45,163 bases of DNA, taken from Candidatus Aenigmatarchaeota archaeon (GTDB lineage Archaea; Aenigmatarchaeota; Aenigmatarchaeia; Aenigmatarchaeales; Aenigmatarchaeaceae). Below, in pieces: positions 9,001 to 15,000 of this stretch; the first letter of the stretch is position 1, and the number at the start of each line of letters is the position of its first letter. The DNA is taken from NCBI GenBank assembly GCA_043814985.1, contig JBDRJK010000015.1, positions 1-45,163 on the forward strand, in the 5' to 3' direction. Made by a program: the position numbers.

Positions 9001-12000
9001 ACTTATTTTGTGGCATCTGTTTTCCCGAACCTCATAACAATGTTCTCCAATGTCTCTGCTGAAGAAATGGTCTATAACTTCCTAGGGAATGGTCTAGAGC
9101 AACTCAGTTTTATTTCTTCTATAATCATTGTTGCAGGAGTTATCCTTGTGATAATTGGTTATATAATCAAATGGAGAAAGGGTAAAAAGAAACAAAGGAA
9201 AACAAAAGTTAAAAAATCGAAGAAATAATTACTTTACTCTTACTGCATACTTTCCAGGGGCTGTTATGCCAGCCTCCCTTGAAATCTCAGAATCAGCGTT
9301 TATCACGACAAGGATGCCTCTCCAGCTCTTTGTAATATCGCTAGTCTTGCAGATAGGGCAGATGTTACCCTTAAGCAATCTTCTGCATTTTCTACAAGCT
9401 TTGTCAGGCATTTTTCTTACCCTTCTTTTTCTTTTCCTTTTTCTTCTCGACCTTGTACTTCTTGGGCTCTTCAGTCAACCATTTTATGTTCCCTAACAAC
9501 GGTTGCCTCATTGTCAAGCCTAATTTGCTTTGTTCCCTGAAGCTGATAGATATTATCTTTGCCCTGACTTGGTCGCCTTCCTTCAATATCTTTCTTGACT
9601 GCTTGCCAGCAAGCTGCGCGTTCTTCTCGTCGTAGCTGACAAAGTCGTCCATTACCTGCGAAACGTGAACTAGTCCATCCAAAGCGCCGCACCTGATGAA
9701 GGCCCCGAACTCGGTTATGTCAACAACCTCTCCTTCAACTACCTCATGCTCTCTGGGCATCCATGTAAGCAGCTTGAATCTTACGGGATACTGGACAGAG
9801 GGATCTCCTGGAAGTACCATGCCTTCCTTTACCTCGTCTATCTCCTTGACAGCCAGGACAACGCCTATTTCGTTGTCAATCTTGCCCTCGAACTTCTCTT
9901 CTATTGACTCCTTGACAGAATTCTTAATGTTAAGGCCCAGCTTGGTCGGCGGGACTGCTATCTCGTCCTCCACTGTTATTATTTGGTACATTTTTCTTCC
10001 TCCCTATTTTGAATATTAGTGATATCAGGCACAAGACCAGATAAAAAACCATTATGTCAATTACAAAAACTATTGTATTAAAGTCCATAAAGCTTTCGGT
10101 CCCGGTGCCAAAGGTATAAATAAGGAAATTCAGCGGCCATCCAATCTCTATGGAGCAGTTGGTACTACAAATAACAGAGCTTGTCAGTATTGGCACAAAG
10201 CTGTAAGTCGCGATTAGGGCGAATATTATTATGATTCCCAGTATTTTCCCATTGCTCGGCATGAATGCACTTAACAGGCTCATCTAATCAAACTCCTTTT
10301 GTAAAGTTCTATTGCACGTCGGACAGCTTTCTTTGCACGTTCTGAATCGTAAATGTTCTCCACTTTCAACTGTTTAAATTGCTCTAGAAACATTTTAAAA
10401 TTATCTAATGTCTCTTTATTTATAGTTGACAGGTCGGTTACGTTATCAAATTCTTTGTCCGCCAATGGGACAGCAACCAGTATGTCGTCTGGTATTTCAG
10501 CCCTAAGTCTTATTAGTCCTATGGGCTTTGATGGAACAACAGTGCCTTTCTGTATTTGGCCTGATGTCAATAGTAAAACATCCAATGGTTTGGCATCAAT
10601 ATGATGTGTCCTTGGGATGAAACCATAGCAACCTGGAAAGGGTGACTCTAAAATCTTGTTCAAGGTGAACAGCCCCATTTTCTTATTGTACTTGTAGTAA
10701 TTGGTTGAGCCTTTTGTAGACTCCACAAAAACATTTACCATGTACTTGTCACCAGGTTCTACTTTCGATATATCCATAAAATCACAATTAAAAAAGAGGA
10801 TATTTATACTTTATTAGATGCCTTTAAATTTCTAGATTAAGGCGTACATTGCTATTAGCGGCGCGAACATTGAAGCTGTCAGTGACATTACAACCAACAG
10901 GGTGTTTATGGAAGGTCCTGCAGTGTCCTTGAACGGATCGCCTACTGTATCTCCAATAACAGCTGCCTTGTGAGCGGCGGAACCCTTGCCGCCGAACTTG
11001 CCGTCCTCTATGTACTTCTTGGCATTGTCCCACAGTCCGCCAGCGTTAGACATCAATAAAGCAAATACTAAACCTGATAAGATGCTTCCTATTAAGAAGC
11101 CTCCCAGTGCGCTCTTACCCAGTATGAACCCGACTGCTAATGGAGCAACTATTGCCAGGACACTCGGAAGAATTAATTCTCTCAAGGCTCCTCTTGTGGC
11201 AATGTCAACGCACCTCGCATAGTCTGGTCTGGCCTTTCCTTTTACCAAACCAGGTATTTCCTTGAACTGCCTTCTTATCTCCTCTATCATTCTGAATGCG
11301 TTCTTGCCAACGCCCAGAATCAAGAGAGCTGAAAACACTGGAGGCATTGCAATTCCAATCAAGGCCCCTGTCAAAATAATGGGATTCATCAAATCAATAG
11401 TGGTGATGCCAACAATTTCCCCATATGCCGCTAACAAAGCAATGACAGTCAAACCAGCTGCGCCAATTGCAAAGCCCTTTGTTATGGCTTTTGCAGTGTT
11501 GCCAGCTGCATCAAGCTTGTCAGCGATTCTTATGACCTTTTTACTCAGACCAGACTGCTCTGCTATTCCTTTTGCATTGTCAACTATTGGACCGTATGCA
11601 TCAGAGGAAACAATCATGCCGGTTATTGAAAGCATGCCAACTGCAGCCATGGCAATTCCGAACAAGCCAGCAAAGTAATATGCAATCATAGTTGCAATCC
11701 CTATTCCGATTAAAGGAGGCAAAATACTAATTGAGCCGTATGAGAAGCCTGTTAAAATGTTTATTGCTGCTCCTGTCTTTGATGCTTCCGCGGTTCTTAG
11801 AGCAGGTCCTCTGTCTATTGAAGTGTAATAGTCTGATGTTACTCCAATCACAACGCCTGCTACCAGTCCAGCAATTATGGCATAGAATATTCCAAAATCA
11901 ATTCCCAAGTAGTAAATAGTTATGAATGCGAATACTGCGAAAATCACGCATGTCATGTAGGTTCCACTGTTAAGTGTCTTTCCAGGATTCCCCCCCTTCC

Positions 12001-15000
12001 TCATTTTTACAAGGTATGTTCCAATGATAGAGGCGAAAATTCCTGCTGCTGAAATTATTAGAGGTAATATAGCTCCTGTCTCGTTCATTACAACTGCCCC
12101 AAGTATCATGGCAGCCACAACACTGGCAACATAGGAGTCGAATATGTCTGCTCCCATGCCAGCAACATCACCTACATTGTCTCCCACATTGTCAGCTATC
12201 ACGGCCGGGTTCCTTGGATCGTCCTCAGGAAAGTCCATCTCGACCTTTCCAACCAAGTCAGCTCCGATGTCGGCTGTCTTTGTGTAGATTCCACCGCCAG
12301 CCTTGGCAAACAAGGCAATCGAACTTGCGCCGAAGCTAAAACCTAGAACAACTCCAGGGTCAGGGAAAAAATAATATATAGCGCTTATTCCCATAAGAGC
12401 CAGACCAACAACAGCCAGACCCATGACAGCTCCTCCGCAGAATCCAACGGAAAAGGCCTTGTTCAAGCCCCTTTTTGCAGCGTTGGCAGTCCTGACATTC
12501 GCCTTTAGGGCAATGTCCATTCCCAACAAACCAGCCAAAGCAGAAGCAACAGAACCCACAACATAGGCTATTGATGTCTCAGCGTTGATGAAAAAGTATA
12601 ATATCACGGACAAGATGATGACAAAAACAGAAAGGGTCATGTACTCCCTTTTCAGGTAGGCCATTGCTCCCTCCCTTATTGCGTCAGATATCTCCTTCAT
12701 CTTGGGAGTTCCGACACTCTGTTTGTTAACATAGAAGTAGAAATACAATGCAGCTATTATTGAGACGATGCCTGATGCAAATGATATTTCAAGTAACACT
12801 TTAACCCTCTTTTACCACGTATTTCCTTTGTCTTATATAAACAATTTTTGCCCCGATTTTTTTCAGCTTCTTCTTGAGCTCCAAGTCCTGGGTTGCGACA
12901 GCGTATCCAGCTTTCGCGTGTTCCAAAAGGGACAAATCTGCTTCCTTTTCTTTGGATTTTAAAACTTTTAAGCCTTTTGTTCTGAGCATTACAAGGGATA
13001 ATTTGGCTGAAACTGAGTCTTTGTCATTTTTTCTGGATATTCTTTTCAATTCTTTTACAACAGCCTCATCTAAGAACAGCTCGTCTCCCTTCAGCTCTGA
13101 GAACAGGTCTATCTTGAACCTGATTACATCGACCAAAAAATTGGTGTCAAGCAGTATTTTCATATTTTATAGATAATTTTCAAAATATAAATGTAGGTTA
13201 TTTTCATATAACACACATAATATCAACAGCTGGCTTATCTGTCAGAGCTTTTTTCGCAGGTCATATACATATAACTTAGCAGAAATACAAATTCCTTGAA
13301 ATTCTTCCTTCTTTTCCATCTTAATTCTAATTCTTTGGAAAGTATTTTTTTAAACCTAGTTTTCCAATAATTCATTTGCTTACTCATTATTCGAGACATG
13401 GGTGACCAGTATTGAATAATAGGAATTAGCAATTCGCTAATTTCATCCTCCCAACAATCATAACTTATCTTCTTTTCTTTGAAGAATTTCTCATGCTTTA
13501 TATAAAACTGATGCAAGAACTTATGCAAGAGTTCATGTGATACTAAATCAATGTAAGTTTTTTCTCTTTTATTTGGCAGGAGTTTATCCGGTATAAAAAT
13601 TGTTGTTTTACCTGTAGACCTAGCCCATGGTTGAAAATGACTGACATACACATAATATTTTTTATATTTTAGTTCATAACCAAAAATAATGTTCGCATAT
13701 TTTAAAAAATCATTTTCAACCAGTTTCCATCTTTCTTCTATTTTAACGGTTCTTTCTTCTATGACTTTTTTATTATACTTGTGTTTCAGGTAATTTTCAA
13801 TTAGGTTTATGCCTTTCTTTTTACTTGCTCTCACTACTTTGTCTTTCAGATTTTCAGGAAAAGTCCAGTCTAAGTATACGCCTTTTAGTTCTTTCTTATT
13901 CTTAAGCCAGGTTACTGTGTCATCAAGCATATTTTCTTTTATTATATTTTGTACAATTTTGCATTCTTTTTTGAAATCTATACAAAATATTAATTTTACC
14001 ATACATAGAATTTAGAATCTTATCATAAAAACATATCAAGATAAAAAAATTAGACAGGTTTCTTGCTGTGTTCGTAAACAATGGCTGAGGAACTGGCCAG
14101 AATTATGATTGCTCCAACAAGCTGAATAGTTGTCAGCATTTCTCCGAAAAGCAGGAACGCTAGAGGCGCACCAGCAAGCGGGCCTATTGCTCTTAGAGAA
14201 GAAACAATCCATGGTCTGACTGTCTTCAAAGAGAAATACCATAATGTAAGCCCTATCACATTGAACAAGAGAACATAAGCCACAAGATACGTCCAACCTG
14301 TTTCAGAGATTAACTGCGCCTGTGGTGTTATAATTAGCATCAACGGCAGTAAAACCAGACCACCCACAAACTGTGCAATGCCGTTGGTGGTCATTGCCCC
14401 CACTTTCTTGGACAACCTCTTGGCATAGAAGTAGGAGCCTGCGAAGAATCCCATGGCTATTACTATGAGGATGTCTCCTATCTGCGATGCGCCGAACATG
14501 GAGAAGTTGCCCGATGTGGAAAGGAGAAGTGCTCCCAGAATGTTGGCTGTTAGCAGGATTACGTGTACTGGTTTTATTTTCTCTTTCTTGACGAACCAGC
14601 TGAAGAACAGGACAAAGTAGGGCTCCACTTTGGTAAGGAATATGGATTTTATGGCCGTGGTCATGCTGAGCCCGAAAACAAAGAACAGTTCACCTACTGT
14701 TGACCTTAAAAATAACAACTTGAGAAAGTCTGACCTGTTCTCGGAAATCTTTGCCAGTGTCGGCCTTTTCTTCCTCAGAATCAGAAGAATTATAATCAAT
14801 GTCCCACCTATTATGCTGCCAATACTGGCTGCAGCTATTGGAGACAATGCCTTTGTTGCACCACTCTTGAATATAGTGGCCATGCTTGAGAGTACTGGGG
14901 ATATTATTGCAGATAGAATGCCATAGTCCATAGACATTATTATAATTAACATGTCAAATTAAAAATAGTTGACACAGTTCTAGACAATTCCTAATTAAAC

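Follow-up and report, generated by a model that had tools for sequence, protein, structure and literature searches.

What does a membrane-integral pyrophosphatase (M-PPase) do in a cell that has no rotary ATP synthase? The question is raised by a locus in a window of 45,163 nucleotides (the whole stretch of DNA analyzed) from genome G000 of Candidatus Aenigmatarchaeota archaeon, a tiny symbiotic archaeon. The first-pass annotation had answered that a ferredoxin-fed hydrogenase builds an ion gradient, that the pump runs backwards on it and stores it as pyrophosphate (PPi), and that a PPi-dependent phosphofructokinase (PPi-PFK) and a pyruvate,phosphate dikinase (PPDK) turn PPi into saved or newly made ATP. 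All the genes it named were located in their places. We compared them across the order (42 genomes including G000, with four genomes in the genus).

The pump gene, hppA (positions 10,832–12,799, minus strand), encodes a protein of 655 amino acids that matches PF03030 over its full length (820 bits, profile positions 1–644 of 645) and is well above the cut-off of NCBIfam model NF001960 (909 bits, cut-off 546). It carries the K+-independent (H+-type) signature, Lys 12.46 and Thr 12.49; in the alignment to the Vigna enzyme (4a01), Ala537, Gly540 and Glu301 are replaced by Lys, Thr and Ala, respectively. According to passages of PMC9408878, K+-independent H+-PPases have Lys in place of Ala, characterized Na+-pumping PPases are all K+-dependent and K+-independent enzymes pump H+. 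We infer that H+ is the coupling ion of the G000 enzyme. This assignment is not certain, since gate position 6.53 is Asp in the query and in 114 of its 120 closest homologues, and no characterized member of this Asp-6.53 subfamily was found in literature searches. The subfamily could consist of Na+ or Na+/H+ pumps whose role, shared with Na/Ca exchangers, would be to balance sodium and calcium and not to supply proton energetics. In the two solved relatives that have a residue at the gate position, PaPPase (8b37) and TmPPase (4av3), this residue is Glu, its placement has a bearing on whether Na+ or H+ is transported (PMC9408878, in part), and G000 encodes three Na/Ca-exchanger-family genes and a CPA-type cation/H+ antiporter. 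However, a Glu to Asp change is conservative, the Lys/Thr signature is that of the other class, and according to the same passages of PMC9408878, Na+-PPases that are K+-independent do not exist in nature; we consider such a change of ion specificity improbable. Close homologues (70–80% identity) bear the names of Aenigmarchaeota, Bathyarchaeota and Parvarchaeota, and the M-PPase subfamily is therefore not special to G000 metabolism.

The surroundings of hppA are conserved. Upstream on the same strand, a single nucleotide, read directly from the sequence, separates its GTG start from the stop codon of a gene for a 120-residue PIN-domain protein (12,801–13,163; PF18477 PIN_9, 51.7 bits; Fcf1, 25.6 bits). 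Downstream, a 54-bp spacer (10,778–10,831), in which a TATAAATA box and a T6 run can be read directly, may hold a separate archaeal promoter and terminator. It is followed, still on the minus strand, by a divergent family-I PPase-like gene (165 codons, 10,280–10,777), whose stop codon is overlapped over 4 nt by the start of an open reading frame for a predicted 117-residue membrane protein of no Pfam family (9,930–10,283, minus strand). The row continues on that strand with RNA polymerase subunit E′ (Rpb7-like; 9,404–9,991; SHS2_Rpb7-N, 53 bits; S1, 50 bits) and with an open reading frame for a 60-residue zinc-ribbon protein (9,229–9,411), possibly Spt4/RpoE″-like, judging by its position.

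Among 15 loci of relatives, a PIN orthologue borders the same slot in 13, rpoE′ adjoins it in 14, and the zinc-ribbon gene stands beside rpoE′ in 13; the 117-residue membrane protein recurs at its place in G013, G012 and G011 and, in part, in G019. Thus, the slot has the form PIN-[hppA]-[PPase-like]-rpoE′, within a row of housekeeping genes that includes the spt4-like gene, and holds either gene alone or both. Both are present in G000, G013, G002, G004, G019, G036, G037 and G008, as well as in G035, whose contig shows no flanks; G012, G011, G006, G017 and G014 have only the PPase-like gene, and G029 and G028 only hppA. Because the slot varies in this way, the two genes seem to be PPi hydrolases that can stand in for or add to each other. 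In this one slot are found two M-PPase types with a mutual identity of only 45–51%, and the PPase-like gene lies just downstream of the M-PPase gene in 11 of the 15 genomes that have the latter.

The neighbour had been described as a soluble PPase, which is not accurate as far as a canonical enzyme is meant. It matches PF00719 over the whole profile (90 bits) and is the sole match to this family in G000, but it scores only 79.8 bits against the NCBIfam equivalog, whose cut-off is 200. Alignment to Thermococcus thioreducens family-I PPase (3i98) revealed that 7 of 14 canonical catalytic residues are replaced, in a pattern shared by the entire clade. In the E. coli numbering of family-I sites, the changes in the 58-member clade are K29 to F/Y (52 members), D42 to K/R (54), D67 to E (34), K (17) or R (4), D97 to G/A/S/N, K104 to V/I (58) and Y141 to F/L (58); the residues replaced are invariant in all 46 sequences of the canonical comparison set. 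The clade retains metal ligands D65, D70 and D102, along with K142 and Y55.

It is nearly an even bet that such a protein is no longer a pyrophosphatase and either binds metal and acts on another substrate or binds PPi in a regulatory role, hence its place near hppA. The replacements and the low equivalog score point this way, as do the freedom of position D67 to vary (E, K, R, N, G) across 14 members of the order and a canonical PPase alongside the PPase-like gene in three genomes (G002, G026 and G027). On the other hand, the metal ligands are retained, and in seven genomes without an M-PPase the PPase-like gene is the only member of the PPase family, which would suit a housekeeping PPase; that argument is weakened by ten genomes that have neither PPase family. 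Five loci also keep the gene without hppA, so that its association with the pump is not obligatory. A family-II PPase was not found in G000, where the only DHH-only protein is RecJ-like.

The absence of an ATP synthase was confirmed. PF00006 (subunits A/B) and PF00137 (subunit c) had no match in G000, with all 14 controls giving a signal in each search, and PF01496 (subunit I) gave only 13.6 and 12.2 bits (cut-off 30.7). Across the order, 38 of the 42 genomes have no A/B match at E ≤ 0.001, the same count as in the first-pass annotation, and 3 have A/B subunits over the cut-off. An incomplete assembly could in principle produce such an absence: G000 is 91.2% complete, in 21 contigs, and three congeners share a conserved stretch of 12 or more genes around PpsA to which nothing in G000 matches, so that sizeable pieces may be missing. 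Yet three separate subunit families are absent, A/B subunits over the cut-off are absent from 39 of the 42 genomes, including all four of the genus, and published Aenigmarchaeota genomes are without the ATPase too (PMC8407114, in part). We regard an assembly artefact as very improbable indeed.

The group-4 [NiFe] hydrogenase is where it had been annotated (C21:46510-50605). Its six or seven Mbh-like genes encode antiporter-like, NuoB-like, NuoC-like, large, NuoH-like and 2x[4Fe-4S] subunits, the large subunit having the motifs RICGICSAAH and DPCFSCMER. The antiporter-like subunit has 294 residues, about half the usual size (MbhH has ~510), and no Mrp-like sodium module was found with the hydrogenase in G000. 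Neither HypD nor HypF was detected in any of the 42 genomes, and HypE is absent from 10 of the 12 that bear a hydrogenase, G000 among those without it. With these genes missing and the antiporter-like subunit half-size, an active pumping hydrogenase is not assured. Nor are the hydrogenase and the M-PPase the only two membrane ion pumps, as had been claimed; three P-type ATPases were overlooked, namely two of type II, one on each side of a Na/Ca exchanger gene directly upstream of the hydrogenase, and one of Cu type. Besides the exchangers and the CPA-type antiporter, likely users of a gradient are SecD/SecF, two MFS proteins, TctA and four EamA proteins.

The catabolic genes held up well. PFK has the motifs GGDDT and PKTIDND of a PPi-dependent enzyme, PPDK (TIGR01828, 1348 bits, cut-off 843) and the alpha subunit of indolepyruvate:ferredoxin oxidoreductase (IOR; TIGR03336, 760 bits, cut-off 651) exceed their thresholds, and the alpha and beta domain architectures of ADP-forming acetyl-CoA synthetase are present. 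PK, PGK and GAPDH are absent from G000 and from all five relatives checked (6/6), and GAPOR was not found in G000, which leaves PPDK as the one glycolytic step found that conserves ~P. Per glucose, the encoded glycolysis consumes 1 ATP and 3 PPi and yields 2 ATP from 2 AMP, so that there is no net gain in ATP unless PPi comes at no cost. The genome also encodes adenylate kinase, which would supply AMP, and a nucleotide route (AMP phosphorylase, R15P isomerase and RuBisCO). Since this route gives net ATP via PPDK even when PPi is paid for, pump reversal is not required.

The direction in which the M-PPase runs cannot be read from its sequence. Reversal is possible, and M-PPases are described as reversible, with PPi synthesis perhaps the main role in some organisms (PMC9408878, in part). 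A chain from IOR ferredoxin through the hydrogenase gradient to PPi made by the M-PPase and ATP saved or made by PPi-PFK and PPDK, at least part of the time, would have every part it needs in G000, would meet the demand for PPi in glycolysis and would suit a rebuilt soluble PPase. The PPDK gene, inserted on its own next to tRNA-Thr and only in G000, also fits. The distribution of the parts speaks against this chain. M-PPase occurs in 15 of the 42 genomes (the earlier 10 of 41 stands only as a floor), hydrogenase in 12, PFK in 4 (all of the genus, rather than the 2 of 41 reported before) and PPDK in 1. Hydrogenase and M-PPase occur together in 6 genomes, hydrogenase alone in 6, M-PPase alone in 9 and neither in 21, a co-occurrence not beyond shared ancestry, and two congeners, G011 and G012, have no M-PPase but retain the hydrogenase and PPi-PFK. 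The sole apparent source of ferredoxin is IOR, which would tie the flux to aromatic amino acids. The absence of a rotary ATP synthase and a PPi-dependent sugar and nucleotide catabolism stand from the original scheme, while reversal on a hydrogenase gradient is, in our estimate, unlikely.

We favour, with a probability of about 0.6, a forward-running M-PPase proton pump with a resident PPase-like neighbour in a conserved slot. The pump would hydrolyse biosynthetic PPi and move H+ outward, a cheap source of membrane potential in a cell without ATP synthase, on which SecDF, ion homeostasis and secondary transporters may draw; P-type ATPases would act beside it, as the minimal hydrogenase may also do. 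Hydrolysis would also hold PPi at the level needed by PPi-PFK and PPDK. The PPase-like protein would be the lineage's resident soluble protein with a rebuilt catalytic site, its PPi hydrolysis being putative. The loose distribution, the encoded gradient users and the same reading in passages of PMC8407114 support forward operation; a glycolysis without net ATP gain unless PPi is free, the lack of a canonical soluble PPase, as expected if PPi is spared, and the reversibility of M-PPases count against it.

Among solved structures, Pyrobaculum aerophilum M-PPase (8b37) is a full-length homologue of the pump (486 bits over the whole protein) and the best match to its N-terminal 280 residues; it is named a "K(+)-insensitive proton pump" in the PDB, a class whose Lys/Thr signature is present in the query. 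The Thermococcus enzyme (3i98) is the best PDB match of the PPase-like protein (90 bits), the two sharing the metal ligands and differing at the seven catalytic residues. The hydrogenase large subunit is closest to Pyrococcus furiosus Mbh (6cfw, 240 bits), and NuoB-, NuoC-, NuoH- and ferredoxin-like subunits are common to the two hydrogenases; unlike Mbh, the G000 hydrogenase has only six or seven genes and no HypD, HypE or HypF.

Clostridium thermocellum, unlike G000, has ATP synthase, GAPDH and PGK. Like G000, it has a membrane PPase that pumps H+ alongside PPi-PFK and PPDK, and PMC8863071 reports that its biosynthetic PPi is too little, that the origin of the PPi is unsettled, and that little changed when the PPase and three other candidate sources were knocked out, making such supply insignificant; an idea equivalent to pump reversal thus failed there. 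The novelty claimed for the scheme was overstated, its elements being already in PMC8407114 and PMC4992975. For Aenigmarchaeota, passages of the former describe H+-PPases that make PMF by hydrolysis in some genomes, a missing V/A-ATPase, group-4 membrane hydrogenases in those genomes that are non-thermal, and ADP-forming acetyl-CoA synthetase; these passages mention neither PPi-PFK nor a role of PPDK as sole ATP-yielding step of glycolysis, nor an altered soluble PPase, the slot or missing Hyp genes. A scheme similar to reversal, from ion gradient through membrane PPase to additional PPi and on to ATP, was proposed for Syntrophus aciditrophicus, in which soluble PPase activity was not found and a reversible AMP-forming enzyme makes ATP from PPi and AMP (PMC4992975, in part). 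Unlike G000, Syntrophus has an ATP synthase, relies on either this enzyme or glutaconyl-CoA decarboxylase for its gradient, and uses PPi through Acs1 rather than PPDK and PFK (same passages).

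The membrane pyrophosphatase (M-PPase) gene (window 10832-12799; 655 aa) lies in a row of minus-strand genes, where it is preceded by a PIN-domain gene (12801-13163) and followed by the gene of a 165-aa PF00719 homologue (10280-10777), a gene for a 117-aa membrane protein for which no family was found (9930-10283), rpoE′ (9404-9991) and, beyond rpoE′, a 60-aa zinc-ribbon gene. The PIN and rpoE′ genes were recognized by ORF and Pfam analysis, the 117-aa and zinc-ribbon genes as ORFs. The GTG start of the pump gene is 1 nt away from the PIN stop codon, while the 117-aa gene overlaps the stop of the PF00719 gene by 4 nt with its start and the start of rpoE′ by ca. 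60 nt with its end. Since the 54-bp spacer ahead of the PF00719 gene contains TATAAATA and a T6 run, this gene may have a promoter of its own. The source assembly (G000), of which the window is contig C15, comprises 808 kb in 21 contigs, with 91.2% completeness and 0.9% contamination.

Loci from 15 relatives, compared by tblastn, revealed a gene row that persists throughout the order (PIN - X - (117-aa gene) - rpoE′ - zinc-ribbon gene), the 117-aa gene being kept in the whole genus and partly in G019. Position X holds the pump together with the PPase-like gene in G000, G013, G002, G004, G019, G036, G037 and G008 (and also in G035, on whose contig the flanks are not visible), the PPase-like gene alone in G012, G011, G006, G017 and G014, and the pump alone in G029 and G028. 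By coordinates, the PPase-like gene is directly downstream of the pump in 11 of 15 pump-bearing genomes. The pumps that occupy the slot are themselves of two types with only 45-51% mutual identity, one with Asp at position 6.53 and one with the motif GNTTKAVTKGF. Since either gene is found in the slot without the other, the two act as substitutes for, or additions to, each other at a single housekeeping position and not as obligate partners. Such occupancy is in keeping with a common function in removing PPi, an argument weakened by the 10 of 42 order genomes that have neither family. In the one metatranscriptome run searched, a near-identical 330-nt contig covers rpoE′, and just short diverged pieces from other organisms fall on the pump.

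The PPase locus is flanked by a region of low GC content (window 1-8454; 0.29-0.32 across bases 1-4000), in which lie a type-I methylase/specificity fusion gene (619-2997), a gene for a primase-polymerase carrying DUF5906 (3921-6089) and one for a tyrosine integrase (7213-8454). The region is probably an integrated mobile element whose end adjoins the locus. Elsewhere in the window, a gene at 15037-17955 encodes a protein of 972 aa, secreted or anchored, that combines a polysaccharide-deacetylase domain with a long region rich in Asn, Thr and Ser and with a membrane anchor at the C-terminus. LAGLIDADG-type endonuclease genes, all free-standing, were noted at three places in the genome (window 37916-38674; locus L029, 4252-4947; locus L035, 5432-6547), one of them among translation genes. 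A Mu-type phage portal gene and a reverse transcriptase gene with HTH_40, located on a 15.6-kb contig (locus L019, G000:C9:1447-15119, at 7648-13036), are possibly part of a provirus or a diversity-generating element.

The neighbour of the pump had been listed in the first-pass annotation as a soluble PPase. It matches PF00719 over the entire profile (90 bits, 1-153 of 153), but with 79.8 bits it stays under the cut-off of 200 of the NCBIfam equivalog NF002317. Alignment with the Thermococcus enzyme (3i98) revealed seven catalytic changes (K29 to Y, E31 to K, R43 to K, D67 to K, D97 to A, K104 to I and Y141 to F) next to retained E20, Y55, D65, D70, D102 and K142; we take the residue numbers to be those of the E. 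coli family-I enzyme, with some 14 invariant active-site residues. A homologue search returned 105 proteins, 58 of which form a tight group at 143 bits or more (44-100% identity), separated by a gap in bit score from canonical PPases, which follow at 89 bits or less. In the alignment of 104 of these proteins (P0213, a short hit of 139 aa, was omitted), all these catalytic residues are intact in the 46 canonical PPases. The 58-member clade, in contrast, has F/Y for K29 in 52 members, K/R for D42 in 54, K for R43 in 52, E (34), K (17) or R (4) for D67, G, A, S or N for D97, and, in all 58, V/I for K104 and F/L for Y141. This fixed, clade-wide pattern, set against 46 of 46 intact canonical enzymes, shows a protein that is conserved but rebuilt and is no ordinary soluble PPase. 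Among 14 sequences, the residue at the D67 position followed no pattern with respect to pump presence. The ESM Atlas look-up returned generic PPase clusters only. No other PF00719 match is present in the genome, and a family-II PPase was not detected either, the sole DHH-only protein (363 aa, contig C12) being RecJ-like.

The pump itself matches PF03030 with 820 bits (profile 1-644 of 645), NF001960 with 909 bits (cut-off 546) and TIGR01104 with 736 bits (cut-off 652), and its Asp-rich PPi/Mg stretch DNVGDNVGD is identical, flanks included, to that of the Vigna enzyme (4a01). Relative to the latter, Ala537 is replaced by Lys, Gly540 by Thr and Glu301 by Ala. The protein carries the K+-independent signature, Lys 12.46 with Thr 12.49, where Thr rather than Gly at 12.49 is presumably part of the K+-independence rule. 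The gate position 6.53 is Asp, while PaPPase (8b37) and TmPPase (4av3) have Glu, so that the gate Glu of the K+-independent subfamily is missing. Of the 120 closest homologues, 114 have Asp at this position and 118 the Lys/Thr motif; the close homologues that carry an organism name share 70-80% identity with the pump and belong to Aenigmarchaeota, Bathyarchaeota and Parvarchaeota. According to passages of PMC9408878, Lys replacing Ala marks K+-independent H+-PPases, K+-independent enzymes pump H+ with a gate Glu at 6.53, and the characterised Na+ pumps are all K+-dependent. Judged by its residues, the pump would belong to the K+-independent class but to an Asp-6.53 subfamily, given Lys/Thr in the signature and Asp at the gate, and we infer that its coupling ion is H+.

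No ATP synthase was found in the genome: there was no match to PF00006 or PF00137, each of which was positive in 14 of 14 control genomes, and PF01496 gave only 13.6 and 12.2 bits (cut-off 30.7). A and B subunits exceed the cut-off in 3 of 42 order genomes, all of genus g25. The missing ATP synthase is a lineage trait, and Aenigmarchaeota without V/A-type ATPase have already been published (PMC8407114).

A group-4 [NiFe] hydrogenase operon is located at C21:46510-50605. It encodes an antiporter-like protein of 294 aa (23.7 bits, to the second half of PF00361 only), a 76-aa membrane ORF, subunits resembling NuoB and NuoC, a large subunit of 392 aa that is extended by 25 residues at its C-terminus, a subunit resembling NuoH (180 bits) and a 2x[4Fe-4S] subunit. 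The large subunit has both the L1 and L2 Cys motifs (RICGICSAAH and DPCFSCMER), the NuoB-like small subunit has the Cys pattern of the proximal cluster, and the best solved match of the large subunit is MbhL of 6cfw (240 bits). The operon is kept in loci of seven relatives, where the antiporter-like gene is just as short. Directly upstream in G000 lie genes for two type-II P-type ATPases and a Na/Ca exchanger (3-6446 of locus L001, G000:C21:40000-57000); four of the seven loci (G012, G011, G006 and G004; L070, L072, L075 and L076) likewise have a Na/Ca exchanger gene ahead of the operon, together with one or two ATPase genes of this type, which looks like a conserved ion-handling neighbourhood.

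A HycI-type protease gene adjoins the operon (TIGR00072, 84 bits, cut-off 47), as part of a region spanning L001 6511-12416 with counterparts in the relatives' loci L070-L077, and the protease exceeds the cut-off in 11 of 12 hydrogenase genomes. The next gene, kept in five loci, encodes a 181-aa protein with a weakly HypC-like end (21 bits, below cut-off). The cofactor of all [NiFe] hydrogenases is held to be built by six Hyp proteins (PMC12130793). HypD was found in none of the 42 order genomes, HypF in none above its cut-off, and AIRS_C (HypE) was missing in 10 of 12 hydrogenase genomes, G000 included; HypA exceeded its cut-off in G002 and G005 only. Controls were positive for HypD and HypF in 4 of 14 genomes and for HypA in 5 of 14 over the cut-off, in each case including E. 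coli, Synechococcus elongatus and two methanogens.

The phosphofructokinase matches PF00365 with 361 bits and TIGR02483 with 428.7 bits, slightly below the cut-off of 430.55. Its motifs GGDDT and PKTIDND place Asp and Lys at both specificity positions, where E. coli ATP-PFK has Gly104 and Gly124, and from this we assume PPi use. The gene adjoins a weak class-II aldolase match and is present in 4 of 42 order genomes, which are exactly the genus. Pyruvate,phosphate dikinase (PPDK; TIGR01828, 1348 bits, cut-off 843; domains PPDK_N, PEP-utilizers and PEP-utilizers_C) exceeds the cut-off in only 1 of the 42 genomes. Its gene lies beside tRNA-Thr (6458-9307 of locus L044, G000:C19:79616-99300). Since in G012 and G011 the same flanks are joined without it, PPDK is a single-gene insertion in G000; the proteins most similar to it, at 61-73% identity, are PPDKs from elsewhere in DPANN. 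PpsA, present in relatives, was not detected in the genome, and at least 12 conserved neighbours likewise had no match; they form a block around PpsA common to the congeners G012, G011 and G013 (loci L078-L080). The block is missing because of either a large strain-level deletion or an assembly gap, and with so many neighbours gone the absence of PpsA may be due to the latter. In-place replacement of PpsA by PPDK was rejected, the PPDK gene being a separate insertion.

A Pfam scan of ORFs of at least 200 aa (461 at E<=1e-10 and 3 more) recovered a ROK-type kinase, TIM, two aldehyde dehydrogenases (one a GAPN candidate; NF040869, 476 bits, cut-off 780), iPGM, enolase, adenylate kinase, glycogen genes, ADP-forming acetyl-CoA synthetase alpha and beta, and both subunits of indolepyruvate:ferredoxin oxidoreductase (IOR; alpha 760 bits, cut-off 651), next to which lies an aminotransferase. 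AMP phosphorylase (600 bits against 535), R15P isomerase and form-III RuBisCO were found as well. The scan detected no PK, PGK, GAPDH, GAPOR, PFOR other than IOR, ATP/ADP translocase or Rnf; AFOR_N had no match in the genome, and direct searches found PGK, PK and GAPDH missing in G000 and in all five relatives searched (G011, G012, G013, G002 and G006). By calculated stoichiometry, glucose as encoded would cost 1 ATP and 3 PPi and return 2 ATP from 2 AMP, so that the balance in ~P comes to zero if PPi has to be paid for. The nucleotide route, from AMP through ribose-1,5-bisphosphate and 2 x 3-phosphoglycerate to PEP, would net +2 ~P even with PPi paid. An arginine deiminase route is not favoured: the clustered OTCase, amino-acid-kinase-family and class-III aminotransferase genes are read as arginine biosynthesis genes.

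The demand for 3 PPi per glucose, and the fact that the genome has no canonical soluble PPase, speak for a pump that makes net PPi at least part of the time; membrane PPases are known to be reversible (passages of PMC9408878), and a precedent has been proposed for Syntrophus (part of PMC4992975). We nevertheless consider net synthesis unlikely. Among the 42 order genomes, hydrogenase and pump occur together in 6, the hydrogenase only in 6, the pump only in 9 and neither in 21, and G011 and G012 keep hydrogenase and PPi-PFK with the pump position empty. IOR is the sole ferredoxin source found, other, ATP-driven pumps are encoded, and pumping by the hydrogenase, and even its maturation, is in doubt. 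In C. thermocellum, an equivalent proposal did not stand up to genetic tests (PMC8863071). We therefore favour forward operation of the pump, with a probability of roughly 0.6.

The first-pass annotation had joined ferredoxin, hydrogenase, ion gradient, reversed pump and PPi-consuming PFK and PPDK into one scheme replacing ATP synthase. The PPi-type PFK, PPDK, the group-4 hydrogenase genes and the absence of ATP synthase are all borne out; a reversed pump on the hydrogenase gradient is not, its parts failing to co-occur. In the boldest form of that scheme, PPi would be the only product of chemiosmosis, the Asp-6.53 pump an H+-driven PPi synthase powered by a minimal ferredoxin-oxidising hydrogenase, the newly acquired PPDK the sole glycolytic ATP-forming step (3 PPi per glucose), and the neighbouring soluble PPase disarmed so that PPi is spared. 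This combination strikes us as decidedly improbable. Its ingredients are also less new than had been claimed, since H+-PPase, group-4 hydrogenase and missing ATPase are already in print together for Aenigmarchaeota (passages of PMC8407114). In the literature passages searched, we found no description of the rebuilt PPase clade and the PPase slot, the Asp-6.53 subfamily, a DPANN hydrogenase without HypD and HypF, or zero-net glycolysis.

If the pump only hydrolyses PPi, as we favour, the locus is simply one more means of energising the membrane, of a kind known for the phylum. How the many DPANN archaea without ATP synthase maintain a membrane potential and obtain ATP is a question that G000 sharpens: the sugar breakdown it encodes yields no net ATP if PPi has to be paid for. 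C. thermocellum poses the same puzzle of the PPi source; G000 differs from it in having no ATP synthase as a fallback.
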